A DNA stretch of 64,000 nt from Takakia lepidozioides. Taxonomy: Eukaryota > Plantae > Bryophyta. The notes beneath the pieces were generated by a model, which saw only the letters and a list, made by a program, of their open reading frames with translations, made no database searches and had not been told where the DNA came from. This document shows positions 2,316-56,545 of this stretch, in pieces. Where the stretch lies: NCBI GenBank assembly GCA_030704615.1, contig CM060732.1:80414001-80478000 (forward strand). The letters run 5' to 3'. The translations under genes were made by a program, and so were the position numbers. How positions within the stretch are numbered: position 1 is the first letter of the stretch; every line of letters starts with the position of its first letter.

Positions 2316-5300
2316 TTAGGCGTTCAGACGTTTGACTTCAATGGGGAGCCCATCTTTGATATGGGGCATTGGAAGATACACATGGGTACGGTCTCCGAAC
2401 GTTTCCCAGCTGCACCCATGTCCACCACCCTCACACCCAATCACACACAACATTCCTGCCAGAAAGGAGTAATTCTGGGGACAGCTAACTTTGTAATTCA
2501 AATTCTATCTAGTTCTCTGACCACCTGCTACAGCAAGCATACAGCAAGCCAAGTCTTGTGAGTGCGACATCCATTATAAGCAGGTGAATGTTTGGAGATT
2601 GGACGTTATACCTGAATTTGGTGATGAAGTGATGCAGGAAGACGGCAACTTCCAGCCTAGCAAGGTCAGCACCTGGGCAAATCCGTGGACCATTTCCAAA
2701 ACCCATGAATGGTATCTTCCCTGCATCTGGTGCCTGATAAGAGAAATCAAGCAGTGTTCAGTTGAGGATGGAGCCCATAGATTGCTTTTTTAGGTAGTCC
2801 AGACTCTTTATCAAAACTTATTGAAACTGCACTAGAAGAAAGCCCAACAGCACTGCTCGATCTGCATCACCATGAGTAGGGATGCTTGTAGAGCTTAGGT
2901 GCAATTTACTCAGAACACAACTCCAAGCCATAAAATTGGGTTGACAGAGCTTATAATCTTTTTAGGGAGAGAGAAAGGTCTTACAGTGTAGCGGTAGGGG
3001 TTAAACTTGAAAGGCTCACGGAATCCAGAGGGATCATAATGTACTGACATCATGGATGGAAAAATCTTCCAGCCCTTTGGAATTATGTAGCCTGCATAAA
3101 CACATGGAACCATCCATAAAAAGTGTCAGTTACATCAAAGCATGTATTTTGCAGACATGAACTGACAAGATGAACTAAGTCATCTCATTTTGATTCAGTC
3201 GGAGAACCTTCAACTTTCAAGGCTGTTTCTAGGTGTATGTTTTCTGCTTAACATGGCAGCAAGACTACATGAATGTGAGATTCACACTTGTACTAACAGC
3301 ATTCTTCATGTGTGGCAAAAGGGCCATGAGACGAAAGTTCAAGGAAACTCACCATTGATTTTGACATCCTCTGTAGCTTCTCGCATGAGAAGGTTCAAGG
3401 GGGTGCTCATTCTAATTGTTTCAGTGATCACCTGTATATGCCAACCCATCCATAACACACTCTTCAACTGTCTGCAAGTGGTTCTTATTTGGTATTATGA
3501 GACTACATTGCAGGCTTCAGCAAACAGGGATCGTTAGTCCCCAAGCTAGACGCAACCTTCCACTGAAAGATGAAACATCTAGAGAACAGGCATTGAGAAC
3601 CAGGCCTCAGTGGGGATGAAACTCAGAAATGCATACACAACTTTTGCCAGCAGTGCTCACCCCTGATTACTCTAATAGATTGTACTCATAAGACATTGTT
3701 TGCCGTAGCCTTGTGGCCATTGACCCCGCGCCCAGTTTGAGCGGGAACAAAAGGGACAGAACCTACCTCTGTCAGGGGCTGACGTTGGTAGTAAGACTTA
3801 CCTCCATATAAAGAATTAATCTGGGTTTTCCAGATATCCTCTAGAAATCCCTTCACACAAGCATCAATCTGCTGTGTGTGATTTGCCCAAAAACTAGGCC
3901 TCGGGAGGGCCTGGGCTTTTGGCTCAGCCTCGAGACTTTCAAAGTTGGTAAACAGGGGTACAGGCACAATTCCCTTAATAGATTTGAAGAGAGCGTCTCT
4001 TTGGTGAGAGAACCCCGGACAGTGTATCAGAAAATGAATACTGTCTTCAGATTGCCCACACAACGGGCAATTGCACTCTCCCTTTCCTCTCTGCTTCTGT
4101 TTGCTGTTCAAAGGTAGGCTTCCTGCCCTGAGTTTAAATTTCAGTCTAGTGCCGAGAGTGGGTAGACCCTTGAGGTCATCCAAGATGTCCTCCCCCATGT
4201 CACAGACTGGAAACAAGTTCAGGGAAGTTTTCTGCCTAACTTCATTTTCATCAGACAATCTCATGGCAACAGACATGGCTGAGGACACTACAGCCTCTAA
4301 GTCAGATTTATCCAGCAGGGTCAAGACTTGCGGATCCAGGTCCAGGTCCTTGAGGATCTCTTCTACTCTCTTCTGCCAGGACTTAGCCTGTTACTCTAAT
4401 AGAGACAAAGAACAAGGATGTACGTACATGCTGCGTGAATGTCATGCTCTTATACTCATCCCATGTCAACTTCTCATCTTTTCCTTTGTTCTTGCGAATG
4501 GCGTCATGTTCTTCCTGTCAATCACGCTTGTGTCAGTGCCCACAAAAGTAACTTCAACAGTTTATCACGTCTCACCAGTCTAATGTGTCCAGGCTTTCTC
4601 CTCTACTTTCGAGGTTCTCTTCCTTCCCTCTCCCTACCAATCTTTCCACTTGCCCCAACACCTCTCTTTCTGCAAACACCTTCTCTCTCAACATCATGTG
4701 ACCACGAATCTCAGAGCTGATCTTATCCTCTGGCTATGTGTTGCTCTGATCTTCTCAGTGCTCACCTTGACTTCACGCCTAAAATTGGGATGCTCTGACA
4801 AGAACTTGATAATAAATGTGAGAGTGGTTGTTGCAGACTCATGTCCTGCAAAGAGCATGCTGTGACAATAGTCCTCTGCCATTTCCTTCAAATCTGCATC
4901 AGTCAAACTGGGATTCTCCTGTTTCTTCACTTCCTGATACTCCTTGTACTGATTGACATCGTTTTCAGTGCAGTAGGGGAGGATGTCTTTCTGGATGATT
5001 TCAAATACATTTTTTCGTGACTGCACATACAATGTTTCAAGCACATCCGTCAGCAGATTCCCATGAGGATGTCCCAATACACATCCATCTTGTGTAGATT
5101 GAGACCCCACCTTGTGACTTGCAAGGAGACACATTAGTCGATCAGGCCTTGGCTACCTCTTTTAAAAACTGTCGGGTCATTGGCATACAGAAAACTCTTT
5201 TTCCTTGAATTGCATTTACATGTGCAAACACACTGTCACGTTCTTACCTCTTCTGCTTTGCTGAATTTGGATCCATATAGTTTGATGGGTGCTGTATACA

Positions 5301-6714
5301 AGCCATCTGTGTAGGTGTACATCTCATGCTTCAATGCTTCAAGAACCTTTCCTGGTTTGAGATTGCTGAAGAGAGAATTGGCCACAATCTCAAATGTGAA
5401 CTGCAATACAATCCATGTCAACGTAATCAAACACTCAGATATAGACCCCAACAGAGAACATATGTGCCGTCTCTCTACTCCTCAACTTCAAGCAATATAA
5501 GCTGAGCCCACCTTTTCCCCCACCCTTCCCCCATCTCTCTCTGCGATTGGCCACGCAATGCGCTCTACCATACTTTGTATTTTTTGAACCTTGTCTTCAC
5601 ACGGAAAGATCGTGGAAGCCGGTTACTTACACTTCTAGCTTCATCACCCACGATCACTCGTCGGCCCTCCCAGGTGCTCAAGGTGTTGAGAGCAAACTCC
5701 TCAACTGCGTTGATGCGGTCCTTCAAAGCAAGAAAGCCAACTTTGGAGAGAGCAAATCGTCGCCACTGCTTCCACGCCTCGCCATGGAGGCTGGGAGCAC
5801 TGGTCCTGCCTGTGAGTTCTTCAGGATAGCTGGTTTTGAAAGTCTTGCCTTCTGCCTGTAAGACTAACTTGGCATCCTCAGGACCCGACGCAATGATGGT
5901 TGGCTCACCAAACAAATGCGTTGTGAATACACTTCCGAACCTGCAGGGGACACATGAACTTGTTACTTAACATTGCCATCAAGTTCTTCTTTTTCCTCTC
6001 TTTTTCTTCTAAGGGGCATTCTAAACAGCGGTTGACGTTATCTATGCGAGAACTTAATCTCCTTAAGACATCATTCACAGCTATTTACTCGGCGGCAGCA
6101 ATTTAACCAGAGCAGGCACCACATGAACTAAGTAGGTCGCGCACACACGGGCCCGCTGGCAGTCTATGACGGAATGCCTTGCGGATTGCAAAACGTCGCC
6201 CGTGTAGAACGCATTCATACAGATATGGAGATCCTCCCTGTCAGTCGCACATAAGCACAACCTCGTGTTCTTGCAGCCCAGACGATCAAGAATTCTGCGC
6301 AACCGGGGCCCAGTAATTCTCAGCAGGACCTGCCTGAACCCGCAGACTGATAATGCAGCCCAATTGGCTACCAGCCCCTCCCAATTGAGAATAGATCGGT
6401 TCTGAGGAGAATCACTCGACCCACGAAACTCAAAGAAGACTGCTAGTGCGACCATCACAGAGAGAAGTGAAGATTGTGGATTCTACGACCAACACTCGCC
6501 TTTTCTTACGTGACTCGATAAATTGGCCCTCATTGTACTTCTGAGTGAACATGAACTCCAACATCTCCCCCATGATGGGCAGCCCATATTTGCCAGGCGG
6601 CAAAGTCTTGAAGTAGGGCCCCGCCACACGCTTATAGGATGTGGCCGACCTCCATAGCCAAATCAGGAGCCCTGCAGCGCCAACCAACACTGCAGAAAGC
6701 AGTTTCATCTCCAT
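2316..6714 (-). CDS. Cytochrome P450, CYP85 clan, 9 exons, about 473 aa, apparently intact
   Basis: Exons 6714-6500, 5940-5631, 5400-5248, 5020-4766, 4514-4428, 3431-3353, 3091-2985, 2733-2612 and 2409-2316 splice in frame (1422 nt). Motifs seen: N-terminal membrane anchor, LPPGKYGLP hinge, I-helix AGHESA, ExxR (ETIR), FNPYRY and heme motif FGNGPRICPG. The exon layout is typical of the CYP85 clan. Intron 1 needs a GC donor. Confidence 0.93.
3680..4390 (-). mobile_element. 5'-truncated non-LTR retrotransposon (RTE/RTEX-like) in P450 intron 5
   Basis: ORF 4324-3686 carries a CPLCGQ..ED..HFLIHCP zinc-finger-like tail and is nearly identical to the C-terminal part of the RT-bearing LINE at 30342-31070. 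A 13-bp direct repeat TTACTCTAATAGA (3667-3679, 4391-4403) flanks it as a TSD. Confidence 0.88.
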
Positions 6715-11442: not shown

Positions 11443-12600
11443 ACAGTACCACTGCCAAGTTTGGGTCAACTCTGCCATCGACATTGGGAAGGTGACATGG
11501 CGCACAATTACGCACATGGTCTTTCCAAGTCATGCCATCCCGACCTCCAAGATCAGGACTCCTGAGGGCAACACCTCTCGAACCCTCAGAATAACACGCC
11601 CTGCAGTGACATCCAGGGTCGTAGGAGCAGTCTGCTGCAAATAAACATAGTCACCAGGGCTAAACCTCCGAACCCCAGGGCGATATCCTCCACTACGTAT
11701 AGTGGTATACCTCAACGTATCACGGTGTTGTGCAATGGCAAGGTTCTCAAAAGCCATGGGCATGACTTTCTTGAACAACTCTGCACGCTGACCACATGCA
11801 CGTACCTACACGTCCGGATCGTCAAGGTTAAGGACTTGAGCAATGTCCCTACGAATGGCTGCAGGCAAATCCGGCTCTCGGCCAAAGAGAAGGAAATACG
11901 GTGAGAAGGAGGCAAGTGATGTTTGCTTGCTGAACCTGTAGCCCATGGCTAACCAAGGCACCTGAAGATCCCAATCTCGTAGGTGTCCCTTCTGCAAGCC
12001 ATACTTGCGCAAACCCCTCTTCACTGTCTGAACAACTCTCTCTGCCAAGCCATCGGCCTCAAGATGATCCCGAGAAATGGTGCGGTGGTCTATCAAGGCT
12101 TTATCACACAAAGCCTGAAACTCCCCCAAGAACTCTCTCCCTTGGTCCGTGAGTACCTCAGCTGGAGCACCGAATCGGCTAAGCACACGATCCAAGAATG
12201 CATACACAGCCCCCTCACTAGCCTTGTCAGGCAATGGAATCAACTCAATCCACTTGGAGAAGCGCTCCACCATCACCAACACATATCTGTGGTGACGCAT
12301 AGTCAGTGGCAACGGTCCTGCGAAGTCGAGACTCCACCTGTAGCCCAATCCCATGATTGGTAAATGATGCAACTGTGGTGTAGGGGCATTGAATGAAGCA
12401 CGCACCCTGTCACACACCATGCACCTAGCCACGAACTGTTGCACCTCTGTATGCATACCACGCCACCAATATTGCCCCTGCAGTAAACTGTGAGTGCGTC
12501 GCACTCCAAAATGCCCCAACTCCTCATGGGCATGCCGCACTAACCGTGCACGCTGTGTTGGGTGAGGCACGATCCTCACCTAACCATCCTCCCACACTCG
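11443..12600 (-). pseudogene. Integrase of the Ty3 element
   Basis: HEELGHFG..CMVC (HHCC), WSLDFAGP, LTDQGREF and GLAERVVQTVK core. C-terminus reads KDHVRNCAPCHLPNVDGRVDPNLAVVL* across frameshifts. Confidence 0.9.
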
Positions 12601-12899
12601 AAGCAGGTGTATCCCTTCCCACTTGAATCTCTTGGCTCGTTGTAGGATCCGACCCCTCTCCTTGGCAGTCACAGTGGCTGCCGTGTCTCCCGTGCGGAGG
12701 TAATCCAACACAGCCGAATCCTCATGTATATCTCTGGCACCACCTGGCTCATCACTAGCCTCAGGGTCCTCAGACACTCCATCTATAGTCATCCCTATTG
12801 TAGGTCCAACCTGACCTCTCGATGCCAAGATACACAAAAATGCAGATGCGTGTCATCCTGACACCATCTCCTCGTCCGTCTCACCATGCCACCGAGCTC

Positions 12900-14280
12900 C
12901 AGTGTCATCCTGTTGGCTCGTGCATGGATTGCGACTCAACCCATCCGCATCCCGATTGACCAAACCCGATCGATGCACAACCTGAAAGTCATACTCCTGG
13001 AGTATGAGTGCCCACCGTGCAAGCTTCCACGTAAGCTTGTCTAACTCCATCAACCACTTGAGTGGCTGGTGATCCGTGACAAGGGTGAAGAGATTGACGT
13101 ATAGGTAGCACCTGAAGTGTGCCACGGCCCACACCGCAGCTAAGCACTCTCCCTCATATGGGCTATACTTAGCCTCTGCAGTGTTGTTCGAGCGGCTAGC
13201 ATAAGCCACTACGAACTTTCTTCCGTCATCATCCACCTGTGTGAGCACCGCTCCAAGCCCCAGCATGCTCCAATCCGTATGCAGCTGAAAGGGATGCCCC
13301 CTGATAGGTCGTCTCAGGATAGGCGCCGAGGTCAACCTCGCCTTGAGCTCTTGAAAAGCTCGTTCCTGCTAATCTTCCCACTGCCATTCCTGGTCCTTCT
13401 TGGTCAGCTTGGTTAGAGCCTTTGCAATGGCACTAAATCCCTTGACAAACCGTCTATAATAGTTTGCCAACCCCATGAAAGCTCGAACTCGGCTCACATC
13501 CGTGAATTTGTGCAATGGCCTCTACCTTAGTCTGCTGTACCCCCAATCCTCCAGGATATATCATATGACCCAGATACTCAATCTAGTTGTGGAAAAACTT
13601 GCACTTCCCCGGATGCAACTTCAATCCGTGCGCTCTCAAGCGCTCAAACACCACCTGAAGGTATCTCTCATGCTCCTCCACCGTAGCACTAAAGATGAAT
13701 CTGATGTCATCTATGTAGCACCGAGCAAAGTCCACCCCTGCTAGAATCCTATCCATGACTCTCTGAAACTCTGCAGGAGCGTTCTTAAGCCCAAATGGTA
13801 ACAACCGCCACTGATATAGGCAATCCTTGCCGTGCTTATCGATCCCCCAGAATGTCGTCTTCTGCTTGTCCGCCTCCTTGATCGACAACTGGTGATATCC
13901 GGATCGTAAATCCAAAGTGCTAAAGACCTTAACATGCCCGATGGCATCAAAGATCTCATCTGGCGTTGACATGGCATATTTATCGGACTTGGTCTAACGA
14001 TTTACAGGCCGGTAATCATCGCACATACGTCTCTTCGTCCAATTGCCATAGACATCCTTCTTGGCTGGCATCACTGTGGCTGAAGCATACTCTCCACCAG
14101 AGAGCTCCACCAAACCTGCCTCCCAGAGATCTTGAGTCCTCATCTGAATCAAAGACCTCTCCATGTCACTGTATCTATAGGGTCTCCGAAAGATTGGCGT
14201 GTCAGTGGCCAACTCAATATGGATCTCTTGACCCTTCAGTGCTCCCAAGTCCTTCAAACTGAAGACAAAGCAATTCCTGT
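12900..14280 (-). pseudogene. Reverse transcriptase and RNase H of the Ty3 element
   Basis: RT: PIFRRPYRYS, RMCDDYRPVN, LDLRSGYHQ, LPFGLKNAPAEFQ, YIDD. RNase H: LHTDWS..GLGAVL, YASRSN, TDHQPL, DADGLSR. Confidence 0.92.
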
Positions 14281-14694
14281 AAGCCCTCAGGAACCGCCGT
14301 ATACGTCGTCTCTCTCCTCCGGTGACATGGGTCCAATGTCAGGCTCCCAATTGTCCTCCGTAACTGCAACTTAAGTCCAGTGGGCTTAGAGGTAGATGAC
14401 GCGTCCAATGGTTGCTATGTTGCAACCTCTTGAGCAGTACTCCCCACCTGCTCAATCAGTGACAAGGCCTCATCCTGCCCCATCATCTCATCCTTGAGGA
14501 CTTCCTCCACCCGAGAAAATCCCCAACCTCATCCATCACCGCCACTTTGGCTGCCAACTCCCTTTGAACCTCGAGCACCTCTCACGTGTGTCATGGATGC
14601 CTACACCCCGTGGTCCTTACATGCTCGCCCCCACTCACTGCCTGTACTGTCTCGGTAGGCAGAGAGACCATTGAGGGAAGTGTACTCCGCACTC

Positions 14695-15780
14695 TGCGTT
14701 GCTCAGCCATAGCCAAGCTAATAATCCAGAGATCCATTGCTTGCCCCAACACCTGACGACGTGATGCCTCAGAAAGAGACGACACCGCCGTGGTACCAGT
14801 GGTAAAACCCATCGCCCGCTCACGCTCATCAGCATTAGGCTCCACTAACTACTGCAACTGAGCATCCCATAGGAGGCCAGGTCCACTATCCCAGAAAGTA
14901 TGCGATCCTGGGAAGCTAAGCAGTGTAGGTAATGCTGTTTGTGGTTGACCCACCCTGTTGACCACTGCCAAATGCGAACGGTCATTATGTCTCATACGCT
15001 GAGACTGCCTCCCTGTGTCCAAAATGCTATCCACTGTGAGGTGTACTGGCCACTGCCACCCATCAAATGCACGCACTTGCGGTGCCGAGTCACAACGGCC
15101 ACACATCCAACCCCGCCGCACCCCACAGCATCACATGTTTGTCCATCCCAGAGCCCGTGACCCGACCTCTGACCCCCCCCCACCCCACAGTTGCAGATCC
15201 ATTTGCACAGACTCCCCCCCCAGCTGACCCAAGCCATCCCATGACCGGACTTGAATGCACACTGGCCATCACCCTGGCCCGGAGAATCGCCCATCAGTGG
15301 CACATTCTCCAAAGCGTATGCTGGAGATACGCTTGATGAAGCTGCAAGTGGCGCAAAACCCGCACCATCTCCAAAACAAACCGGAGCTGGAGCTCGAGTC
15401 TCGCAATCCATTGTCATGTTCCGGCTGATGAATGCCCTTGGCAGGGCCAACCTGACACTACCAGATCAATGGAGCCAAACCGCTCCAAATCCTGCGCCCC
15501 CATCAACGACATGTTGCTGGCAAGGCCTGCTGGATATCCACGACACTGACCGCACCACCACGCAACACACATCAGGTCTGCTACTGCCATATCCACCCAA
15601 CTCCCAGCAGGCAACAACTAAACTACAGAGAGACCCCGGACTTGCTGCACAACTGACATTGAAACGCGTCATGCAGTCTCATCACCCCCCCACCATCATA
15701 CGGTAACCGCCGAACTTGTATACCTGTCTGTAACACAGCAGCCAATCCGAGGCGGTTGATCTGCCAGCCAAGTCCAGCCG
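14695..15780 (-). pseudogene. DNMT3-like C5-cytosine DNA methyltransferase domain embedded in retrotransposon pol (frameshifted)
   Basis: Degenerate motif I LDL-AG-ST/GLAAVLQTGIQVRR (~15777-15705). Motif IV IDLVVSGWPCQGHSSAG (PCQ at 15446-15438) followed by GLRD..GLFW/EMVRVL. Motif VI YALENVP (ENV at 15309-15301). Motif IX EPNADERERAMGFTTGTT (14845-14790). Motif X RRQVLGQAMDL (~14760-14728). Confidence 0.88.
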
Positions 15781-16519
15781 CCCAAATGCTTCATCGGATC
15801 TGCCCACATACGATGGTGTCGAGTACCCCATGGTGACCAACCTGGTGCCCCTGCTCGGTGGTCCTGGTGCCCCCCAATCCCCCACACCCTCTCTCCTCCA
15901 TCTCGGCTGCTGGTCCCCAAGCGCTCTCCCAGGTTTGTTGCCCACCCCTCGCTCCACCCCCCCTGCAAATCCCGCTGTGCCCCCAATGGCGTTGCCACCA
16001 TGGCAGGCCACCCCCGCACCACCATACATCCCTGTCCTCCTACTCCTCTGGAGGGGGTCTCCTCTGAAATGAGCTGTGCCCTCTCGCTCCTCCCGGCCCC
16101 CGCAGCCCCCCATGGTCTCCCCAGCCATTCTCATGACCTCTGCCACACGCCCTTGGCAATCTTGCAACAACACCCCCCGCAAACTCCGCCCTCCGACACG
16201 CCCCACCAAAGCACCCCACACCGTCACGCCTCCATGGCGCTGCCCGCGGCCTCACCCTCACACTGCCATGCCCCTACGCCCTCACCCCGAGCCCAAAAAG
16301 GCCCTGCCTCCCCAAACCTCCCAGGGGAAACCCACTCTGGGGTACCCCCCTGCCCCCCACCCCGGACCTGTGAGCACCCCGCCCGACCACGTCTGTCATA
16401 ACTGTCCTTGACTCGCATACTGCGCCATCTTGAGCCATCCATGTAGGGTGAAGCGGGCCGTCGTCTGATAGCCCCCAAACCAGCACCCGCCAACGAAGTC
16501 GACACGCCCATGCACCTGC

Positions 16520-16730
16520 TAAGAGTGCCTCCCCATACCCCCCGAGCCATGTTGCTCCAATCCTCCCAGAGACGTCTGTAAACTGGAAACGCAAGGCTCC
16601 ATATCCGCCTCCGTGAGGCCCAAGCCTGCAATAGCAGCTCTGCCTAGCATCAATGGCTGAGCGCCCCGAGTCCAACAATACCCGCAGATAGGCCGGTAAC
16701 TCTTTGCCTGCCGGTCCACTCAAATAGAAA
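16520..16730 (-). pseudogene. Retropepsin-type aspartic protease of the Ty3 element
   Basis: LRVLLDSG/AQPLMLGRAAIAGLGL..LQTSLGG read across a 1-nt frameshift (LLDSGA active site). Confidence 0.8.
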
Positions 16731-17849
16731 ATGAAAATGTCATCCTGGTTGTCTAACTACAACTCCCAGGTGTTCACCATGGCAGTGCTCAATGGATGGC
16801 TGCTCGGTCTAGTGGCAAGCTCCATCAAACTTGGCAGCTACAGCTTACCATTTGACCGCCGTGGCATCTTGACCCTCAAATCCGAGGATCCCTCAGGCAC
16901 TCTATAACTCCCACTATCTCCGCAAAGAAGAGTGGAAGTCCCTCACACTCACAGAGTGTACTGCCAACCTACAACACCTCAATGGTATTACCCCGGGCGT
17001 CGCAACAATCATAGTGTAGCCGACACAGAACAATGGAGCCTGACATACAAATGTGGCCGCTCCCAGCCGCACATAGCTGTCGTAGCCTTGGCAACACTAG
17101 GTAGTGGTGCTACCTGTGTAGCTCTCCCCAATGGCGCATGTAACCTCTGCCTTGGTAACAGTCGGGCAAGAACTAGGTGCCAAACGCACACTGTCTCCGC
17201 CAATGTGAATGACTGAGGAAGCCTATCCTGACGGCTTAACCTCCCTACGCTGTGGATCCAACTCCACCTCTGCCACCTCGTTGGCTCAGGAACCGTTGCG
17301 CTCCTGGTCACGGCTGCAGCAGATCCACAATGCATAGTGGTAGTGTTGCTCCGCTAGCAATGCCTCCCAATCCTCTGCTACCACCTCGTATACACTCGCC
17401 ATTGTCTTCCTATGCCTCCTCTGATCTTCCTGGAGCCCCTATAGGACTCTAAGGGTGTGCGACCATCCTGGCCCTTTGTGCCGCCGGATCTCATCACCCT
17501 ATGAGGTGACCTCCAATCCAGCAGACGAGTACATCTGAGCGTGATCCCAGGCACTTCCACGCTCTAGGAGCTGCAGCACACCGCCCTGCCACCAGCTAAC
17601 TGACTCTCTTCAGGTCAGAACCCACCCTCACGGAGACCCTCCCTTCTTCCTTGGCCATGCTGAGACTCCCTCCGCTCCTTGGGCCTTGGGCCACCCCTGG
17701 AGCCCTGGCCATGCCCTATGTCGTGCCTATCTCTAGGCTGTTCGTCCATGCCCGGAATGCCGACCAGCCCCTCTTGCGGCTCCCAACCCACCCACCGTAA
17801 AAAGTCCTCATCAATGGCCATGTGCTGCAACTCATGCCTGGAGCGGCAC

Positions 17850-19050
17850 GGCAAGATGCACCCCCATCTCACTCACTGGCAGTCCTCTCCAGAAAGCCCC
17901 GTCTGCTTGCCACAATGCTCCCAGTTGTCCAGCATACTGGTCTCACAGCTGTGCATATGCCGCCCTTTGATCTCCTCTGGCAACACCCATCTCTTGTGAT
18001 GGGTGTCAGGCTGCCCTACCTGTCTCACACACAACACCACCTCCAGCCCTTTGAGCCCACATCATGGACTGCGAACCAGTGTAGTAGCAATCCATCCGAC
18101 CATCCGGGTCCCTCTTTGTCCTTCCCTGGGCTTCACCTGGACCCCCTTGTTGCCTTGAGCACGTTGAGTAATGGTGTTTGGGAGAGCACCACTACCCCCC
18201 GTGGGTTCCTTAGCAAATCCCCAGCACCACCAGACCCACTAGTCTGTCTTTCTTCCACATGTTGAGCTCTATCCGCTCTGCCAGCCAAAATCAACAACAC
18301 TCCCCATTTGCCCGCCCTAAAGTGGGTTGGCCGCTTGTAGGAGACTTGCATCCCGCACCCTTCTCCTCAGCTCCTTGTCCAAAATCCACATACCAAGATG
18401 GGACTGCCTGAGCTTCCGTAACCCCTTGGGTTACATTTATCAAGCGCCTCATGCGAGTTGAAAGCCTCCCTCAAGGTCTCAGTAGGGCTTTCCGTTGGAA
18501 CTCTTGCAAGCTCTTGCAACTTCTCTAGTGCTGGTGCGGTGGGGGTATTAGTGGCGTGGGTCGGTCGTAGCTACTGTACCACCAGTCCCACTGCTGCTGC
18601 TGAAGCTGCCGGTTGCAGCGGCGGGTGTAGCCAATGCCCTCGTGGCTCTAGTGCCCCTAGTGATGGAGACATAGTCGGGTGACCATTACATCCTCCACTC
18701 CTCGAGTCTCAACCTCATGCCCCCGCCTGAACTCATGGTAATCATCCATAGGCGCCCTCAAGGTGCTGAAACAACCCCTTCCATGCCATGAAAGACGTAA
18801 ATAGTTGTGGATTGCGCATTTGCCTGCAAATCACACCAACTATCAACTCTTGGATAAAATCATCCATCTCGATGGTGTGCCCACCGCCCCAGGTACCTTC
18901 ATGGCCCCTTGGTAGCTCCATACATCTCCTTCATTGTGTCCCACAACAATGACAAGGAAACAACTTGCACCGCCGGTGTGAGTCCTCCGATTCACAATCC
19001 GATCAGAACTTCCGTAGAAGACACAAGAGGTGAAGGTGGCCTAAACCGCA
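17850..19050 (-). pseudogene. Degenerate gag-like region of the Ty3 element
   Basis: Fragments read across indels: DDFIQE.DSWCD..QMRNPQLFTSFMAWKGLFQHLEGA and ETLREAF..MRRLI..VTQGVTEAQAV. The assignment rests mainly on position upstream of the protease. Confidence 0.55.
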
Positions 19051-19869
19051 CACCTCTCTTGTGTACCCACTAGTATCGCTAGTGCTCGAACCGGCACTGT
19101 CCCCAGCAACTAGTGGCACCTCCGTGTTGACAAACTGTCACTCAACCGTCATGAACAGTCCCTAACCCCCTCTCCACAAGATAACCGGGTAGAGACCTTG
19201 TTGCGGCTTATGGTTTGGAATACTAGGTTTCTAACATAGCCTACACCTGCACCTGCATCCACCGAAAACACTCCTATGGTTGGCTGGTCATCACCTCCAA
19301 CCTCACACATGAGAAACAATGATGGTCTGACTGTCATCACCCCAGCCTCACCACGACAGCATGGCTCTAGGACTGGCGGTGATAAAATCCGGACCAATCA
19401 CCTATAAAAACAAGCGCCCACACAAAACTAACAGGCGCACAGTCAAGCATGCAGGTATGGAGGGGAGCCAAACACCAAGAAATCGAACGACAACTCCCCC
19501 ACATCAAAAACAACTCTACGTGTTTGCTCCTGCAGAACACCCCAGCCCAAACCCGGACTGACTCTTGCCTCCACCTACGGAAAGTCTTGGCCTAATGAGA
19601 GGGTGAAAACTACGAGGAAGAGAAGCTAAAGCAATGCCTAACCCCAACATGCCCTCATCCCAACACTCTTCCTCTCCTCTCTTCCCTCACTTGCATGACC
19701 ATTGGAATATCATGAAGATACTCCTCAAAACCGCCCTCCACGAGCGTCAAAATTCGGCCTTTAAGACCACATGCCAGTCCTTAGGCAGTCCACACATGCC
19801 TCCACGTCAGCACAGGCCGTCCACAGGTCAACACGGGCCACCACAGACCAGCACAGGCCCACACAATTC

Positions 19870-20160
19870 ACTGGTCACAGTCGTCACGCCGCACAGCCCA
19901 CAGCGCCCCAAGGCCACATGGCCACAGCCTGTCACAGCCCCTCACAACCTGTCAAAGTCTGTCACAGCCCCAGGCACAGGTCACAGCCTGTCACAGCCTG
20001 TCAACAGCCCCTCAAGCCGATCACAGCCCGTCACAGCCCCATAGGCCCCAGGGCACAGCCTGTCACAGCCTGTCACAGCCCCTCACAGCCGGTCACAGCC
20101 CCAAAGGCCACAGGCACAGCCTGTCACAGCCCTACACAGGTCACAGGGGTCACAGCCCCA
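19870..20160. repeat. Array of about 20 (TGT)CACAGCC units
   Basis: Directly visible ~10-bp repeat GTCACAGCC(T/C). Confidence 0.85.
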
Positions 20161-20639
20161 TCCATGGCTACTCATGGCCGTTTAGCATTTTCCTCCAAGG
20201 GGTTTAGCCACGCCAAGCTAGGGTTTGTGTCCTTGGACTCTAGGCTTCTTTGCACGAGCTATGGTGGCTGTGAGGAAGGAAATCAGCAAGGTATTCTTGC
20301 TCTTTATGGCTCCCATACACCACCAATAGTAGCTCTAATTCCAAAGGAAGATATTTGCAACCAAAACTAAGTGCACAAGCTTTTTTTTAACTCACAAAAA
20401 CAGTGCCATTGATCCCTATGGTGACTAACCAAACATGGCTGACTTCCAACCCTTGTAGGTACTCATTCACGCACTTTTCTTGACCATAGCATGCCCTTCA
20501 CACCTAATCCAACCCTTGCACCTGTTGCTTCAAGAGCTGTGCTCCCTTCAAGCTTGAAGTTGAAACCCAACTCACATAGGCCCTACAAGTGCTTTTATTT
20601 CACCCCAAGTGGAAACCAGCCCTAGCCCTTCCGTTCTAG

Positions 20640-21000
20640 CCTCTCTAAAGCTTGAAAACAAGAGCCTCAATGGGCTGAAGGCATGCTCCACACATGCCCC
20701 ACTCTCACATAAGAGAAATCAGCTCCTTTGCTTCATTTATTGCACCCACAAACCTGAAAATACAAGCTTCAGCGGGCTGAAACCATGCTCCACACATGCC
20801 TTACAAGAAAACCAGCCTCTTCCTTCCTTTCTTGCACTCCCAAGCCTGAAAGTACAAGCCTTCAACAGACTGAAGGCATGCTCCACACATGCATTGCCCT
20901 CACATAAGGGAAGTTAGCCTTACCCTCTTCATTGCTTGCCCTCCAAGCTTGAAGATGGAAGCTTCAATGAGCTGAATACATGCTCCACACAGCAACCCTT
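20640..21000. repeat. Four diverged ~100-bp modules sharing GCTGAA..CATGCTCCACACA
   Basis: Motif recurs near 20675, 20777, 20870 and 20971 with similar flanks. Confidence 0.65.
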
Positions 21001-22179
21001 CACACACAAGAGGTATCAGCCCCTATCTTGGCTCCTTGATGCTCTCTAAGACAAGACTAAGCCTTCCACAGCCTTTGCCAAGCTCATGAAACCCTAAGGC
21101 TTACATTTCCAGCCACAAGACACTCATCTTGTGGTGCAAGAGCTCTTGTGAATCTAGGCTTGATGTTGCTGGCTGCAGTCTGCAGCTCAGAAAATGCGGC
21201 ACGCCAACTGAAGAAAATCGCCAAGGCCGACTGCAGCAGAATTCCCAAATCTCATTTCCCCATTTTCTCGTGAACGCTCCTCCAGCACCACTGTGACCAT
21301 CAACACCACCAGCTCACGTCTCCTCATCGAAGTCCACCCCATGGTACCTGCGACGACATCAACAATCAACTGCCAAAGAACCGGATCACAACGGCTAGGA
21401 TTCCTCCTCGTTGGTCTGAACTTGAAATCCTAGGTGCACATTCCATGGTCTTGCCGCACCTCTTAGCTCATGTTCTAGCCCTGCTCTTGCCATGACAAGA
21501 GCCCTCTCAATGCTGAAGCTCGAGATTGAAACCCAATCTCAACATACTCCACAAAGTGCACTGATTTGCCCCAAGCCAAATCAGCCCTTTCGCTTGTTCT
21601 TGCAATCCTTCACACAATGAAAGCTCGCATTCCCAAGTCCAGTTCTAGCTTTGCTACCAAAACCATCTAACCTGCTCTTGACTGGTCCTCTCCCAATGTG
21701 CTTGCTCATGCAGTACACAATATGAAACCATCAAGGTGCTCTGGAATTACCTGCAGCATGGGTGTTTCATCTTGAAGCTGAAGATCGAATGCCAAGGTCT
21801 ACCACCTCGTAACCCACATCGCCTCCGCTTCTAACAACCAAGAGCTCCACGGTGCTCTTTGCATAACAACCTGGTTTCTCTCATTCTCAAGCAAAAACCA
21901 CAAGTGCTACAACTAACTCGTATCTGGCACTTACAGATACGAGCTCATCTTTCTCGACTGATAAAGAAGAAGAATACAAGCACAAGCTCATGCCATAGCT
22001 AGGCGCGGTTAGGCTCAACTCGAGAAAGATGAGCCTCCCGCGCTTGCCGTGAAGATAACCACTCCGGGGCCTAAATCTGCCTTGACCCCTGGATTGACAC
22101 TTGGGCCAATCCCAAATTCAATATGTAAAAGGTAGCTATTTCTTAGCTAGTTTCACACTAGTGGTGAAATAACTTGACA

Positions 22180-28500: not shown

Positions 28501-31500
28501 CCGACTGCCGATGGTGGTGGTCTCGATGGTTACATTTGTAGTGTCACTCTTTGCGATTGTGGTTATGTACATATGGTTTGTACCAAATGCCTCGTGCAGA
28601 CTTAACATTTTCTTCATCAGCTGGACCCTCATCCTCATCCTGGTAATGACAGCCATCTCTCTCCATTCAAAGGTAATGGCATGTTTCTCTCTTTGTTCCA
28701 TCTTTCCATATGTTCAGTTTAAGTCTCTCTCTCTCTCTCTTCCATTTTGTCCCATAAGCTCTATGAGCTTGCCGCGGACGTTATGAAGTACCATTTCAGT
28801 TCATTTCATTTCATTTCTCTTTCTTGCATAGAAAAACTCCAAAATGAAGAGGTCAAGGCTGAGTATGTCCATTGCAAGAGGCTCTCCCTCATGTTGTCCA
28901 CTCACTCCACGACCTTCAGTCTTGCTCTGGCAATGCAAGAAATGTAGTCAAAAGAGCAGTGGATTCTTGGGGAGTGTCATCTCCTCTGTGGCTGACAAGA
29001 TCATTGGGAGGAAACTAATTGTCTGCGGTAGAGCTGTTAATTGGTGGACCAATGAGATTAAACTCAATAGCTGAGATAAGTCCTCTAAAGATATCAATCA
29101 GCTTGTAAGGTCTCAGAAGGAATTACCCTGGGACAAACTATACAGTGAAATAAAGTCATACCACCATGGTGGTAATGACGTGAGATTCTGGTTGGCCCTT
29201 CAACGTTTGTACAAGCTGAAAAACTGCAGCAAGTACAAGCGCTGAGGACTACTAAGGGTGCAGTGGTGACTTCAACGGTTGACATATCCTTGGCAGAATT
29301 TCTAGGTCTAATAGTGAGGGGTCCTCTGAGGAATGGAACGCAGTTGGAAAAACTGTTCCTACGATTCAAGACAGCCCTGATGAATTGGAGTATATTTCAA
29401 AGGCCTACAATGCTCCCATTAGTTCTTCTGAGATTGTGGAAGCATTTGAGCATTTAGACGGATATAAAGCTGGTGGACCTGATTGGCATGATGGCGATCC
29501 CATGATAGAGGCCCTTGTACTTCTCTTTAACCTTATCGGAAGGACTGAAATGATCCCCTTTCGCTGGCGACATGGGGTCATTGTCAATCTATACAAGAAG
29601 GGTGACAGAGAAGAACCGGGGATCTACCGAGGCATCACGCTCCTCAATGCAGTTGGCAAGATATTTTGCAGAGTTATAAGTACTCGTCTCGAGGTTGATC
29701 TGGAATCTAGAGGTTGTTTCCACGAAGGCCAAGCTGGCTTTTGGCGAAACAGGGGCTGTGTGGATCATATCTTCACTCCAAGCCAGATTATCAAGGTAAG
29801 GAAAAAAGAAGGGAAACCCACTTTTGTTTTTTTCTTGGATGTCATAAAGGCTTATGACACAGTGTGGAGAGACGGTCTATGGCTCCGACTCTGGTCATGT
29901 GGGATCAAGGGAAAGATGTGGAGAGTTGTCCATAACTTGTATGCTCCCTTCCTACACATACCTCGGCGTTGAGTTTTCCTCGCAACTGTAATTGGGATGC
30001 ACATATTCAGGATGTTGTTCAAACTGGCAAGCACAAAGCGCTGGGTCTCCCTAAATTTTTCCGCTGCAGAGGGATCAACTCTGATGTCAAGAAAACCATG
30101 ATTTGTCACGATATTAGACCTGCCTTGAAGTACGCATCTGCTGATAACTCCAACCAGGCTACGTCTCTAGAATCCATTCAAGTGGGGGTGCTTAAGGAGT
30201 GCATGTCAGCAATGTGGCTGTTCGGAGTGAGTGTGGCATCCCTTCCTTAAGCTCCCGACGAGATGAATTCAATGTCAGATGGTGGGGTTAGCTGCAACAT
30301 ATGTCAAACATCAGATATCCTAAGTTAATCTACTCTATATCTTGGAAGCAGGATCGCCCTGTCAAACATCCTGGCGGAAGAGAGTAGAAGAGATTCTCAA
30401 GGATCTGAATCTTAGCCTGCAAGGCTTGACCCTGCTGGATAAATCTGACTTAGAGGCTGTAGTGTCGAAAGCCATGTCTGTTGCCAGGAAATTGTCTGAT
30501 GAAAATGAAGTTAGGCAGAAAACCTCCCTGACCTTGTTTCCAGTCTGTGACATGGGGAAAGACATCATGGATGACCTCAAGGGTCTACCCACTCTCGGCA
30601 CTAGGCTGAAATTTAGACTCAGGGCAGGAAGCCTACCTTTGAACAGCAAACAGAAGCAGAGAGGAAAGGGAGAGTGCAATTGCCCGTTGTGTGGGCAACC
30701 TGAAGACAATATTCATTTTCTGATTCATTATCTGGGGTTCTCTCACCAGAGAGACGCTCTCTTGAAATCTATCAAGGGAATTGTACCTCTACCTCTGTTT
30801 ACCAACTTTGAAATTCCCGAGGCTGAGCCAAAAGCCCAGGCCCTCTTGGGGCCTAGTTATTGGGCAAACCACACACAGCAGGTTGATGCTTGTGTAAAGG
30901 GATTTCTAGAGGATATCTGGAAAACCCGGAGCAATTGTTTATTCCAAGGTAAGTCTTACTACCGGCGTCAGCCCCTGACAGGTAGGTTCTGTCCCTTTGT
31001 GTTCCGCTCAAACTGGGCGTGGGGTCAATGGCCACAAGGCTACGGCAAACAATGTCTTATGAGTACATTCTCTCTCTCTCTCTCTCGTCCCTTCCCCTGT
31101 TGGGGTCTAACGTTTGGGGCTGCTCACCACAGCAGATTGATGCTTGTGTGAAGAGCATTCTAGAGGACATAAAGCCCAAACTACTTGTTTATACGTAAGT
31201 CACACTGGAGTGAGCCCCTCACAGAGGTAGTACCTATTCCCTATGTTTCTGTCCACGGGGTCTAGGGCCACAAGGCTACAGCAAACAAAGTCTTATGAGT
31301 ACATTCCTTCTCTCTCTCGCTGGAAAATTGCAAATCCTAGCAGAAGAGGAGAAGAGGCAAAAGCAAGTCATAGGCACCAAGAAAAGTGCATGAGAGGCAG
31401 CAGAGGGCTAAGACTAAAACACACAACAAACCTTGGGGAGGGGCAACCTAAACCAACACAAGAGCAACCACAGAAATAAGATGCACACACCGTGACAATG

Positions 31501-36320: not shown

Positions 36321-36666
36321 TTATACCTCTCTAACAACCATAGCATCAACAAGTAAGTATAAAAGTTCTCGCCCTCAATCGGGAGTCACAGCTCGTGGGC
36401 TCTGGTTTCAGCCATAGCTAGAACCTAGGTGCCAGCCTAGGGTAGTAGCTATAGCTTTTATCTTGTGGGATGGTTCTCTCTCGTCTAAGAGCATCTCCAC
36501 AGTGAGCACGGCACGTCAAATGCTATATGCCCTGGTTACAGGGGCGACAGTAATTTTTGCAGGGACGGGTTGCACTCCACGGTTGGGACGGTAGAAGACC
36601 CTGCACAGAGAGCGCCGATCAGACCTTGGCAAGCGATCGCAGTTTCTTGAGCGTTGAAATGGATCT

Positions 36667-37275
36667 TTGGAGAGCGCAGGTGATGGCTGGGTTGGGGCAC
36701 AGCTGCATGCATACTTTGGACTTCCAGGTGGAAACAATGATCTGAATGTGCTTGACCGTTCTCCATTGATTGCTAATTTGCTACAAGGTCCGGGGCATGA
36801 CTTGCATTTCACTGTCAAAGAACAATGTATCCAAGATACTATTTGCTTGGTGGATGGAATTTCTCCGAAGTGGAGCATTTTTGTGTCCACTATTCATGAG
36901 CCACAAGGGGAGAAAAAACAACACTTTGCGCGAGCACAAGAATCTGTCAGAAAGGATGTTGAGCGGTGCTTTGGAGTGTTGCAAGCGAGATTTCACATTG
37001 TAGCAAACCCTAGCAGATTGTGGGATAGAGATGTCATTGAGGATATTTTGATGGCATGTGTAGTGCTCCACAACATGATTCTGGAAGATGAGAGCGAATT
37101 AAATCTAGAGCCAGCATACAATCCAGAAGTAGGGCAAGAACAGTACAGATGTGGGCTCACATTCGCAACATGCATGCAAGGAACAGAGGAAATTGAAAAG
37201 CAAGAGACACATTTCAATTCGAGAAGTGACATCATTGAACACTTGTGGGCACTCGAGGGGAATTCAATTGTATGA
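36667..37275 (+). pseudogene. Harbinger/Pong DDE transposase, C-terminal half
   Basis: HAYFGLPGGNNDLNVLDRSPL, LVDGI, QESVRKDVERCFGVLQARF, ACVVLHNMILED, IIEHLW. Confidence 0.88.
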
Positions 37276-37328
37276 AATAAATGTTGTTGCATTTCAAGTT
37301 GCCTATTTTTTCTCTTCTATCGGATTTG

Positions 37329-38324
37329 CTATGTCTCTTCTGCAAATTCCGAATCTACTGAATCGGCATGCTCTGAACCAGCCATAGTAGTAGCAATTTC
37401 AAATGTTGCACCCTCTGAAGTGACATTTGACACCACAGGTTGATTTACCGTGCTAGTTGCAACAGCTTGGACCCTAGCTCGAAGCTTGGCGAGCTCCTCC
37501 GATCGACGCAATCTGAAATATTCCCTTGCCTCATCTGATTGCAATTGATCATCAGGCAAAGTAAACAAAGCCATTGCTGATTGATCCTCAAGTATACATG
37601 CTTTTTTCAATGTGGCTGCAACCATGTCAGCTGTGGCACGAGCCTGGGCTCTGATTGCATAATCCCTCATTTTCTGGTCCTTTTGATCTTCCTTGGCTGC
37701 TTTGTTTCCCTGCGGACGCTTGGCAAAGCAGGTCCAGGTCCGGGTGTGGGTCCATGTGTGGCGGTACACATATTCTCAATGTCAATAAATTCTACCTCAC
37801 CGACATCATTCCCTTTCTTCTTCATGGGTGGCGTTCTCCTCACGTCTTGCTGAACTTCTCCCCAATGAGGCACGTTCTTCAGGACAAGCCAGCAATGGAT
37901 AAACGTGAACGATTGATGCTTGGGGTGTTTGCTCTTGTATAGCTCGAGGGCTTTCGTGAATGTATCCTCTGCAGTGGTTCCAGATTCATTCAAAGCAACA
38001 ACAGATTGATAAACACCTACAAATTTGGTAACATCGTGTTTAATTGTGCCCCACTTGGTCTCCAAGCTACGTGCGGGCCTTTCCGAGACACCCCCTGGTC
38101 TGTTTGCATTGTAGTGTTGCATGACCCTGTCCCAAAATGTAACCGCTCTGACCGTTGCCTGTCACTGGATCCTGCGAAATGCACAAAAACGAACAACAAA
38201 GTTGTCGCTCTTCATCATCGACGAAATTCCGGCCCTTCTTGCCTTTCACAGCTTGAACCGAAACAGCCTGTGGGGCTCTCGTAGCTTGAGTAGAAACGAT
38301 ATCTGGGTTTCCCGCCTCCGCCAT
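37329..38324 (-). pseudogene. Pong-type ORF1 (Myb/SANT-like, NAM-associated-like), frameshifted
   Basis: GRNFVDDEERQLC..ISQDPVTGNGQ, RSLETKWGTIKHDVTKF, FTFIHCWLVLKNVPHW and KRPQGNKAAK across three frames. Confidence 0.82.
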
Positions 38325-39333: not shown

Positions 39334-40747
39334 AGGGGTAGCAGCGACGCAAAACTACGCATGTATTTTTCTTATGTCAGCGTTGTTGAAAATCAACTCC
39401 TGACCAAGTTACTATTACATAGAGTTACTGTGATGACAAGTCAAACTTCAATAATATCAGTGCTGACAAGTCACAGTTAACAAGAGATTAGCCTCAGTTA
39501 GCTAAGTTAGCTTCAGTTATTAATGATTCAAGTCAGTGTACCAGAATAGCAGGTAGAGATAACTTAAGTAAAAACATGGAGTTATGCTATAGTTATCTCA
39601 GCCGCTTCTTGGATTAGACGTTGAAGATGGGAGAGCTCGGAGGGTGGATACACAGTTTGTTGTGGTCATATGGTTGGGTGGAGAGTTCTCAGTAATCAAT
39701 TGATCTTTTATCTCTATTCTCTGTCGAATTCCAACATGGTATCAGAGCGAGGATTTGTCTAAAAGATAGAGGGAGATGAGTATTTGATTTACAACCTATA
39801 GGCTTGAGTGCTTAGTATTAGATTTGGAAGTTTGAGGGTGTTTTGTATTTGGCAAACATCAAACTATCATCATGGCATCTTTTGCTGATCATACCCGAGT
39901 GGAGGAGTTAGATAGTCACAATTTTCATACATGGTAAATTAAGATGAAGTTCATTCTTCATGAGAAAGATCTGTGGGACATCACATCAGGAAAAACGGTT
40001 GCACCAGTTCAAGCGCAGCCTGAAGATGAAGAGATCATAGGCGCAGGGATCACTCCTAAGCAATGACTTCTTGAAAAGAAAGAAAAGTTAGCTCGAGGAA
40101 CCATGTTGTTGAATGTAGCAGATTCAATACTTCATCATGTTACACATGCTAAAACTGCTAGAGAAGCATGGTTCAATCGATGTGTCAGCCAAGTTAGCTT
40201 CAAGGTGAGGACTCAACATTCAATGTACCTGATACACGCTAAGGAGGGAGGAGCACCACACATCAGTATTTATAGCTACACTTCCAGCACTCTTGCATCT
40301 TGTATTGGCAACATGGAGTTACAGGAACCAGATACATTGAAGCTGTCGCTTACCCAACTACCAGATCAGCCGTTTCGACTCTCACGACCTTCAACATCAC
40401 GCCGACGCTCTCGAGACGATGGGTCACCAATGCGACGTGTACTTCTTCGTCTGGATCCCGTGCGATGGTAATTGGAGCCTACTCGAAGTCTGATAATTCT
40501 GTTGGAGGTCGGACCCAGAGGGCAACGAAATCATGTTTGAAGGCAGCTTCGAAAATCAGAATGTTCAAATCACTCCGTGGTCCCAAGTTCAAGGTGTTGG
40601 ACACTATCGATAGTTGCATGGACCTATAAATCATTTGAGTCAAGAACGAAGAACCGAATACTTGGCAAGTACCATTCGCCGAATTTTGGATTTTCTCCAA
40701 CTCTAAGCAAGTCCAAGATTTTACCGCTCCTCGAAGAACTCGGTGCT

Positions 40748-41382
40748 AGAAGAGGGGGTTATGTCACGGACATAACCCAGAAGAACTTACCAGGAGTAAA
40801 TACCAGAAATTACCAAGTTATCATATTACCGGAAGTTACCATGACTTACCGTGATTTATCATGATCTACCATGATTTACCATTACTTACCATATTACCGG
40901 GAGTTTACCAAATTACCAAGAGTAACTTAGGAAACTGCTTAGGAAGCTTCATTTGGAGGAAACTTCTCCATCAAGATACCTCATTTGCTTAAGAAAGCTT
41001 CTCAATCAAGAATCCTTTGTTTACTTCTCCATCAAAAAACCTCCATAGGGGAAGCTTCTTAGGAAACTTCTTTGTAGCCAGTATATATAGAAGGCGAGAC
41101 TGGACACTCTTCAGTCTTGCCAACACCAGTTTAAGCTACTATTGTTTCCAGTTCCCAGTACTCTAGCCCAGTTTCCAGTATCTGGTACTCCAGTCCAGTT
41201 TCCAGCATTCCAGTATTCAAGTCGTGTTCCAATATCTTGTACTCTTGGTCATTGTTATAAAGATCGTCTTGATTCATATTTAATCATCGTGCATACGGCC
41301 ATGCCGACCTTGATTTCTTGTCTAGTCTTGTACCTCTAGTCTCATCTCTTGTTTGTGTTCAGTCATATTCTTGTCTTTGACA
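40748..41382 (+). mobile_element. Polypurine tract and 3' LTR of another LTR retrotransposon nested in the Copia
   Basis: AGAAGAGGGGG PPT followed by TGTCACGG (40762) .. TTTGACA (41382); internal TTACC, AAGCTTCT and TTCCAGT repeats; TATA-like box near 41082. Confidence 0.7.
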
Positions 41383-41749
41383 GAACGAAGAACACTAGTG
41401 TACTTGGTAGATTTGTCAAGAGCAATAGAAATTAGAACAGAATGCGATGACCCAACACTACGACATCAATCCAAGTGGATCAATGCACCATGTAATATTG
41501 TGCTTTTCGACAATTTGCTGCAGTGGCTCTGGTGGAAGCCACAACAACAAACGATCCGCACCCTCCTCTTGGGCTTACACTCTTGCTCAAGGAATAGAGA
41601 ACATTCACTCGCCACAAAAGTGTTTGCCACAAAAGAAGTGAGGGGCATTGTGACCATCTTATATACCCTCCAGTCTCAAAGCCTCATACGCTCGACGTTC
41701 CAATGCTACGACCGCTCCAGGTCGCATGTTATTTTTAAAAAAAAACTGT

Positions 41750-42102
41750 TGCGACCACCCTCATGCTAGTGGTCGCAGATACCCCCATGCTCGTGGTCAC
41801 AGATATAAAAAAACAGAAAATTGCTGCGACCACCCCCTGCTGGTGGTCGCACCTATTAAAAAAACAGAAAAATGCTGCGACCACCCCATGCTGGTGATCG
41901 CAGATATTAAAAAACAAAAAAATGTTGCGACCACCCCCCTGATGGTGGTCGCACCTATTATAAATAAAATAAAAATTGTGCGACCATCAGTAGCGGTGGT
42001 CGCAACTGTTTAAGAAAAAAAAAAATGCGACCACCCCTGCTGGTGGTCACAACTATTAAAAAATAAGATAAATTCTGCGACCACCACCATTTGGAGGTCG
42101 CA
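41750..42102. repeat. Array of seven GC palindromes TGCGACCACC-N-GGTGGTCGCA separated by A-tracts (~50-bp period)
   Basis: Units near 41750, 41825, 41876, 41926, 41980, 42026 and 42076. Confidence 0.85.
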
Positions 42103-42328
42103 TCAATTTAACAATAATGATTTAAAAATGACCTCAAATACTGGCGGATAGAGTAATTTATAAAACAATTCATTCACTTGCCAAGGTGTCGCTTGGAATA
42201 TAACGTGTTCACCTACGTGGCATATTTTTCACCTAACTCATGTTTTACTAATTTTTCGGCAAAGCTGACGTGACGTTGGTCGCGTCAGCGTCAGGTCCGA
42301 CGTGACGTCACTGACGTGTGCAACCCTG

Positions 42329-56310: not shown

Positions 56311-56545
56311 TAATTCCATGCATTATCATGAATCAATCATTATCAGTTACAATCATCTGTTATTTTTACTTACTACATAATTATTTATTCATATCACTTT
56401 ATATTTTATCATTATATTTTTATATTTCAAATTTAAAGTATTAGATATTTATATTATTTATATAAATGAATATACTAAACTATTTATTTAAAAGAACCAA
56501 AATTGTAATATATATATTTATTTAAATATAATGATGTATATTATC

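Follow-up and report, generated by a model that had tools for sequence, protein, structure and literature searches.

A DNMT3-like methyltransferase domain placed at the end of ORF1 by a conserved in-frame stop in Ty3/gypsy retrotransposons of bryophytes

What does a cytosine methyltransferase do inside a retrotransposon, and how much of it is made? The question is raised by a stretch of 64,000 nucleotides from the moss Takakia lepidozioides (contig CM060732.1, positions 80,414,001 to 80,478,000; hereafter the window). A sequence-only reading of the window had proposed that ordered C5-methyltransferase motifs lie on the pol strand between protease and reverse transcriptase (RT), and that they belong to a land-plant family of retroelements encoding a DNMT3-like enzyme within the polyprotein. 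Why a retrotransposon should keep an enzyme of host silencing is given as an open question in the discussion of PMC5890265.

The element was delineated along the minus strand. All motifs named earlier were found there, in the order given and between protease and RT, the latter from about 14329. A probable 5' non-coding part (19000..22000), whose boundary we infer, is based on a strand skew which resembles that of the coding part and persists to about 22000; it contains short tandem arrays at 19905-20113 and 20648-21024. Frameshifted gag remnants corresponding to the start of ORF1 lie at 18258..18943 (tblastn with the ORFs of Marchantia P0007 and of L025, E 1e-7 to 1e-12), and an aspartic protease remnant at 16544..16828, with LLDSG at 16664-16678; in intact relatives the Pfam domain Asp_protease_2 is weakly detected. 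The DNMT3-like C5 cytosine methyltransferase domain (DNMT) occupies 14690..15780 and is broken over three frames. Its motif I, from which the Phe of FxGxG is absent, consists of LDLAG (15763-15780) and, in a different frame, GLAAVLQTG (15722-15748). The other motifs are IV, DLVVSGWPCQG, with the catalytic PC (15435-15467); VI, ENV (15298-15315); a VIII-like motif, SRALGWTN (15137-15160); IX, ERERAMGF (14804-14827); and X, RRQVLGQAMD (14732-14761). Behind motif X, a C-terminal tail of ORF1 (14418..14689) can be aligned with the final residues of relative P0014; in most relatives ORF1 ends 70-141 residues past this motif. A conserved stop, TAG followed by CAA CCA (14409..14417), then stands between ORF1 and the part encoding RT, RNase H and integrase (RT-RH-IN). 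It is of the UAG-CAR-YYA readthrough type, and a long-loop RNA stem predicted on its 3' side (14297..14407) is suggestive. RT, with stops and frame changes, covers 13505..14329 (YIDD at 13706-13717; 66-76% identity to the pol of L047 and L059), RNase H 12856..13500 (TDWS at 13267-13278) and integrase 11446..12579 (H2C2 at 12505-12528, core at 12139-12336). The copy ends abruptly near 11446 and lacks the PHD finger and the 3' repeats that intact relatives possess. A search for a terminal repeat of the window copy identified none, and no pair of long terminal repeats (LTR) flanks it. The order GAG-PR-RT-RH-IN (PR, protease) is that of Ty3/gypsy, in agreement with Pfam on the relatives. Several frame changes and stops within the DNMT fall where sister-copy contigs vary by indels (15237-15281, 15330 and 15419-15420). 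The window element is a dead, broken copy of a Ty3/gypsy family, without its 3' end.

The identity of the domain was examined with profiles and with a structure model. The Pfam check proposed at the outset gave a divided answer: PF00145 matched one of the three window frames at E=0.021, short of the cut-off, whereas a profile built from 23 relatives matched the three frames at 3e-63, 2.6e-20 and 4.9e-4, covering successive parts of the domain. The claim that the domain is split over several frames is thereby confirmed; the pieces of motif I alone were not significant with the same profile. Among the relatives scanned, 28 of 37 match PF00145, with E up to 0.001. The likeness to DNMT3 holds in the relatives by profile and by predicted fold. 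When the family profile was matched to PDB sequences, DNMT3A/B/C took the first 29 of 49 places, with HhaI and DRM2 scoring far lower, and a fold search with a model of relative P0010, not of the window copy (pLDDT 77), returned DNMT3A as best match (E=1.8e-17, TM 0.79 by target). The motif order from I to X is unpermuted, i.e. not of the DRM type.

Sister copies were assessed as short contigs of public sequencing runs. On 14100-16900 there are 11462 and 5039 such contigs for one sample and 180 for another, and they cover much of the DNMT; on 15792-16543 no sister contig was found at 80% likeness, a gap to which we attach no weight. The datasets listed for the element included none of RNA, which has no bearing on whether it is expressed. 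With the C-terminal half of the DNMT, 65 relatives were recovered among 782 candidates (best E=3e-44), those named being from Marchantia, Calypogeia, Riccia and Sphagnum; further named relatives come from Klebsormidium, Closterium, Mesostigma and Haematococcus. When representatives clustered at 50% identity were searched with a profile, 450 matches fell below 1e-30. No named vascular plant is present among the matches listed by these word-limited searches, and 17 pattern matches in viral contigs included none confirmed as a relative. A search of prokaryote genomes gave one relative, L081, an intact 9.3-kb element contig in a cyanobacterial bin, which is probably eukaryotic contamination. These sequences indicate that the lineage spans land plants, charophytes and chlorophytes: the family is present in land plants, as had been proposed, and is not specific to them. 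The badly broken state of the window copy, in which Pfam barely detects the domain, might also be read as a fragment of a host DNMT3 gene captured once. The probability of such a capture is practically negligible and it was rejected, since contigs of sister copies extend over the domain, the same arrangement recurs in elements of liverworts, mosses and algae, and no intron-exon structure is seen.

Local profiles run on 248 proteins distinguish two architectures: RT-RH-DNMT-IN-PHD (42 complete and many partial, Haematococcus included) versus PR-DNMT before RT. The DNMT tree (188 element domains, midpoint root) splits the same two architectures. In the RT-RH tree, which comprises 42 of 126 rows and has no non-DNMT gypsy outgroup, the PR-DNMT type groups with Klebsormidium P0301 against the chlorophyte-type elements (UFBoot 99), and the window element nests among liverwort and peat-moss elements. 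Both trees contain element sequences only, without host DNMT3, and were rooted on chlorophyte-type elements or at midpoint because a chromovirus outgroup was too short and was dropped. The kinship to the Klebsormidium element that had been proposed is recovered by RT and DNMT alike, P0301 and P0188 falling in the same streptophyte group, and the DNMT domain tracks the RT tree, as in co-inheritance. The elements with DNMT between RNase H and integrase and with a C-terminal PHD finger constitute a large and diverse gypsy group, catalytically intact (e.g. P0078, P0084 and P0208), with named members from Haematococcus and no report in the literature searched. A distant relative, P0068, has a DNMT-like domain before RT with the catalytic loop SPCLH, not WPCQG.

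The expectation of a single open PR-DNMT-RT-RH-INT frame did not survive the comparison, for in the clade of the window element a conserved in-frame stop parts DNMT from RT. In the databases, many of the proteins are Gag-PR-DNMT products, 1150-1450 residues long and lacking RT; of 48 clade proteins, two include RT in their record, and these are Marchantia gene models. In the intact members of a set of 80 loci, RT-RH-IN follows ORF1 in the same frame after a single stop (in L047, 1369 codons before it and 1047 after). Both ends of the linker were present in 67 sequences, i.e. 66 loci and the window. Twelve of the 67 are of the L066 type, without such a stop; in 53 of the other 55 the stop is followed by YAR-YY, these 53 not being independent, as they represent about six families with many repeats of one, and L081 adds a further case. 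The commonest family, or Sphagnum-type (42 of the 53), has TAG or TAA and then CAA CCC, off consensus at the final base, with an ATG two codons past the stop. In its 369-nt in-frame linkers, which were found without use of the pattern, the same stop codon is present in 32 of 32 (25 TAG, 7 TAA). Exact stop-CARYYA occurs in 7 of the 53, and in L081, and these belong to five families. The contexts are TAG CAA CCA (window, L025), TAG CAA CTA (L059, L060), TAG CAG TTA (L047, L049) and TAG CAA TCA (L046, L081), all four having the type I form UAG-CAR-YYA known from tobacco mosaic virus (TMV; PMC3542737). The second codon is therefore Pro, Leu, Leu or Ser, which points to a constraint on nucleotides and not on protein; CARYYA accounts for 24 of the 5913 in-frame codon pairs of the same ORFs. 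For Marchantia, Riccia and Calypogeia, the stop context is taken from protein ends alone.

The stop is also conserved within the host. At 14409-14417 no variant reaches a 3% share of the sister-copy contigs (n=1141, 388, 23 and 1 in four runs), while the flanking positions 14407, 14408, 14420 and 14421 do vary. Across families the linkers around the stop are barely alignable, and evolution is coding-like on both sides of it (0.21-0.67 for the tail, 0.22-0.63 post-stop). The first Met past the stop is at codon 3, 5, 14, 48, 48, 117 or 117, and within RT in two loci. Stop-bearing elements form one clade (UFBoot 95 in the RT-RH tree, 0.96 in the DNMT tree), and the stop is a derived character, given that the sister group of this clade holds the single-ORF element P0092. 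Other single-ORF relatives are Klebsormidium P0301, P0077 and the 12 L066-type loci, so that DNMT at the level of Gag is not needed by the whole lineage. Within the clade, the protein record P0268 speaks against a general stop, as its frame ahead of RT stays open for 62 residues where the other members reach a stop within about 25. Loci L066, L067, L072, L074 and L075 belong to a second family of bryophyte type, in which a single open frame covers DNMT and RT; this family lies outside the stop-bearing clade and groups with a Calypogeia protein.

From the position of the conserved stop between DNMT and RT, the domain mainly ends ORF1, as Gag-PR-DNMT. Ribosomes likely read through this stop now and then to make Pol, as its sequence context suggests. 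The 3' RNA stem is predicted in most families, with arm sequences specific to each; arms of one family pair better with each other than arms combined across families, and in 4 of 4 loci the matched pairs fall within the best 0-5% of pol windows. Compared with synonymous shuffles, the stem is clearly better in one of nine loci, L081 (0/1000), the others giving 72-863/1000. Since this protein-preserving shuffle is beaten by L081 alone, the stem is kept as a lead.

The conservation of the enzyme itself was then considered over the clade. Of its 48 proteins, 46 have the catalytic PC and 47 have ENV, and motifs I, IV, VI, VIII, IX and X are each retained in 40 to 47. Between families, DNMT dN/dS is 0.07-0.25 in 13 of 15 pairs (310 codons; finite dS), dS being infinite in two pairs and saturated in many; the single unsaturated pair, L047-L049, gives 0.124 at dS 0.27. 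Among close decayed copies the DNMT value is about 0.9, as expected from decay once inserted. For RT dN/dS, L049, L017 and the pair L001-L017 were left out as distorted by frame changes. The proposed dN/dS comparison thus indicates purifying selection on the domain, which is a genuine part of this high-copy element throughout the family, and its catalytic activity is likely. CG depletion, considered as a sign of self-methylation, does not distinguish the element (0.55) from host DNA (0.49); a young chromovirus nearby stands at 0.92.

In retroelements, an in-frame stop sets the ratio of Gag to Pol. In the model that we propose, ORF1 would encode Gag, protease and DNMT and end at a leaky stop, with occasional readthrough into RT, RNase H and integrase. 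Every ORF1 product would then carry DNMT, RT and integrase being confined to readthrough products, so that Pol would be rare and DNMT made at the level of Gag. Fused to Gag, the DNMT would be packed into the particle, the site of cDNA synthesis, and would methylate the new cDNA of the element before integration. On this reasoning cDNA is the likeliest substrate; we slightly favour packaging with cDNA as the main substrate, and consider the chances of the whole model, from leaky stop to predicted cDNA methylation, to be about evenly balanced. The likely benefit, following the hypothesis of de Mendoza et al. (PMC5890265), would be that new copies come in with the marks of host repeats and evade whatever recognises unmethylated foreign DNA. 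The position of the DNMT differs between elements, being the RNase H-integrase gap in the chlorophyte type and the protease-RT gap in streptophyte elements. A broader scenario is offered tentatively, and its odds seem to us somewhat short of even: a still unnamed lineage of Ty3/gypsy elements, of the same age as the green plants, would always have carried a DNMT3-like enzyme, relocated within the element, and its land-plant branch would have gained a TMV-type leaky stop, hence a particle-borne methylase at Gag level and pre-methylated integration, with intact domains in Marchantia.

Other ways of making Pol from such a junction have to be weighed, namely splicing with the TAG as acceptor, re-initiation at a downstream ATG, or an internal promoter; taken together they are quite unlikely. 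An intron does part GAG-PROT from RT-RH-INT in Ogre (PMC6317226), but here every linker keeps the frame with a single stop and shows protein-level conservation before and after it, and splicing makes no use of the YYA pattern. Sphagnum-type linkers, T-rich before the TAG and with an ATG after it, would suit splicing or re-initiation; the other families have no pyrimidine tract, have an AG just upstream, and do not conserve the position of the ATG. One contig spans the stop without a joint, a weak argument as its run is guessed to be RNA. An internal promoter has its precedent in Candida Tca2, where one is present at the junction (PMC2194720). Readthrough is the reading that we retain for Pol. 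As to the domain, its location in a structural ORF would also suit a nucleic-acid-binding or RNA-modifying Gag module that is not a DNA methyltransferase, which we regard as very unlikely in view of the motifs kept throughout the clade and of nearest solved structures that are DNMT3A/B and not DNMT2. In favour of such a module, residues 263-305 of the modelled relative, presumably those of target recognition, do not resemble DNMT3A, and the model is poor there. Yeast assays bear on both sides: the KnitGypsy-Dnmt3 domain of Klebsormidium gave no methylation, a result that its authors call inconclusive, and the SymbioDIRS-Dnmt3 domains of Symbiodinium methylated CG de novo (PMC5890265).

A DNA methyltransferase could also find its main substrate in the chromosomes: released by the protease, the DNMT would enter the nucleus and methylate integrated copies or host DNA, damping the family or altering the methylome. 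We consider this fairly unlikely. Synthesis at Gag level would yield far more enzyme than one cDNA needs, and the family is very abundant, as seen from the 11462 contigs on 2.8 kb in one host run; there is also a precedent on plant chromatin, host DNMT3b of a moss making about 95% of CHH methylation (PMC6453930). On the other hand, no targeting domain was detected beside the DNMT by Pfam on the relatives, the methylome of Klebsormidium is described as ordinary and plant-like, and selection on each element lineage fits a benefit to its own progeny better than a diffuse one. The cDNA is therefore kept as the preferred substrate.

The ends of the element were studied in relatives of the window copy. 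Four of them (L051, L057, L062 and L065) have repeats arranged as A-coding-B-A-B, i.e. split repeats, and two ordinary full-length LTRs were not found. The ends are TG...CA; of the six loci listed, five have 4-bp target duplications, two of these five being the same insertion, and the sixth is cut short. The relatives thus appear, from these sequences, to have DIRS-like split repeats and to be inserted by a DDE integrase. A copy at L023:6065-14704 consists of A-coding-B alone and has a 4-bp target duplication, the product expected if the two B repeats had recombined.

The neighbourhood of the window copy contains several other elements. At 46159-51926 lies a young chromodomain-bearing gypsy with a 96% identical repeat pair and little CG depletion (0.92), and at 39502-45842 two older direct repeats separated by about 6.1 kb, which probably belong to a further LTR element. 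Two facing ORFs at 36658-38161 are presumably a Harbinger nuclease and its partner, and 3689-4390, 29283-31148 and 56492-58147 contain what we take to be LINE-like RT and zinc-finger fragments; the segments 3769-4381 and 30369-30981 are 91% identical and inverted. Exon-like pieces at 4697-5966 (minus strand) are assumed to be of cytochrome P450. The start of an RH33-like DEAD-box helicase gene, resembling Streptophyta clusters, is at 60759-62015 (plus strand). An AT-rich array of units of about 77-79 nt covers 53700-56330, with abundant CCTAAGG/CCTTAGG palindromes in both orientations.

A DNMT3-bearing gypsy element is known from Klebsormidium (PMC5890265), and the conserved stop which places the DNMT in ORF1 appears to be a new feature. 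In the literature searched, whose scope lay outside subscription journals, Repbase and Dfam, no report was found of a bryophyte or chlorophyte DNMT-gypsy or of its stop, nor of readthrough after a Gag-protease-accessory enzyme product. The conserved stop is a first handle on the role of the enzyme, as it predicts both its amount and its destination. As the family is present in Marchantia, a land plant for which methylation mutants, reporters and ribosome profiling are in routine use, the question can be tested there. A warning for annotation also follows: dozens of bryophyte gene models called 'DNA methyltransferase' are ORF1s of such elements, and because of the in-frame stop gene callers split the element or invent introns.

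Among known systems, the closest is KnitGypsy-Dnmt3, which according to the available text of PMC5890265 shares the Ty3/gypsy Pol order, an intronless DNMT3-like domain upstream of RT, purifying selection and DIRS-like split direct repeats, the latter found here in relatives L051, L057, L062 and L065. As in that lineage, the catalytic residues of the DNMT3-related domain are retained within a gypsy coding region. The two differ in the reading frame: in KnitGypsy-Dnmt3 one ORF contains both DNMT and RT (review file and gene model P0301, which we take from its species and domains to be one of the elements of PMC5890265), whereas in the window family ORF1 ends behind the DNMT, at the conserved in-frame stop. 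The hosts here include liverworts and peat mosses, neither of which is reported in the available part of that paper. A later text, PMC12344493, repeats the 2018 report of DNMT-gypsy and adds nothing further in the part available, and the available REXdb text mentions a methyltransferase or PHD domain 0 times. The Ogre/Tat gypsy elements also make GAG-PROT apart from RT-RH-INT; in Ogre this is done by a non-coding intron of about 274 bp (PMC6317226), while the junction described here is coding, in frame and contains one stop. In MuLV gag-pol, Candida Tca2 and soybean SIRE1 pol-env, an in-frame stop likewise sets the product ratio of one RNA (PMC2194720), but it stands between gag and protease or before env, where here protease and DNMT precede it; the local context of the Tca2 stop gave no bypass in yeast. 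Type I readthrough in tobamo-, beny- and pomoviruses (UAG-CAR-YYA) similarly separates an abundant product from a same-frame polymerase, with a possible 3' stem from about 8-15 nt downstream (PMC3542737). The present stop differs in belonging to a retrotransposon, in following Gag-protease-DNMT, in having a Sphagnum-type hexamer that ends in C and in being described from sequence. SymbioDIRS-Dnmt3, finally, has in common a retrotransposon-borne DNMT3-type domain; it is a DIRS element with a tyrosine recombinase (PMC5890265), whereas the elements described here have a DDE integrase, TG...CA ends and 4-bp target duplications.
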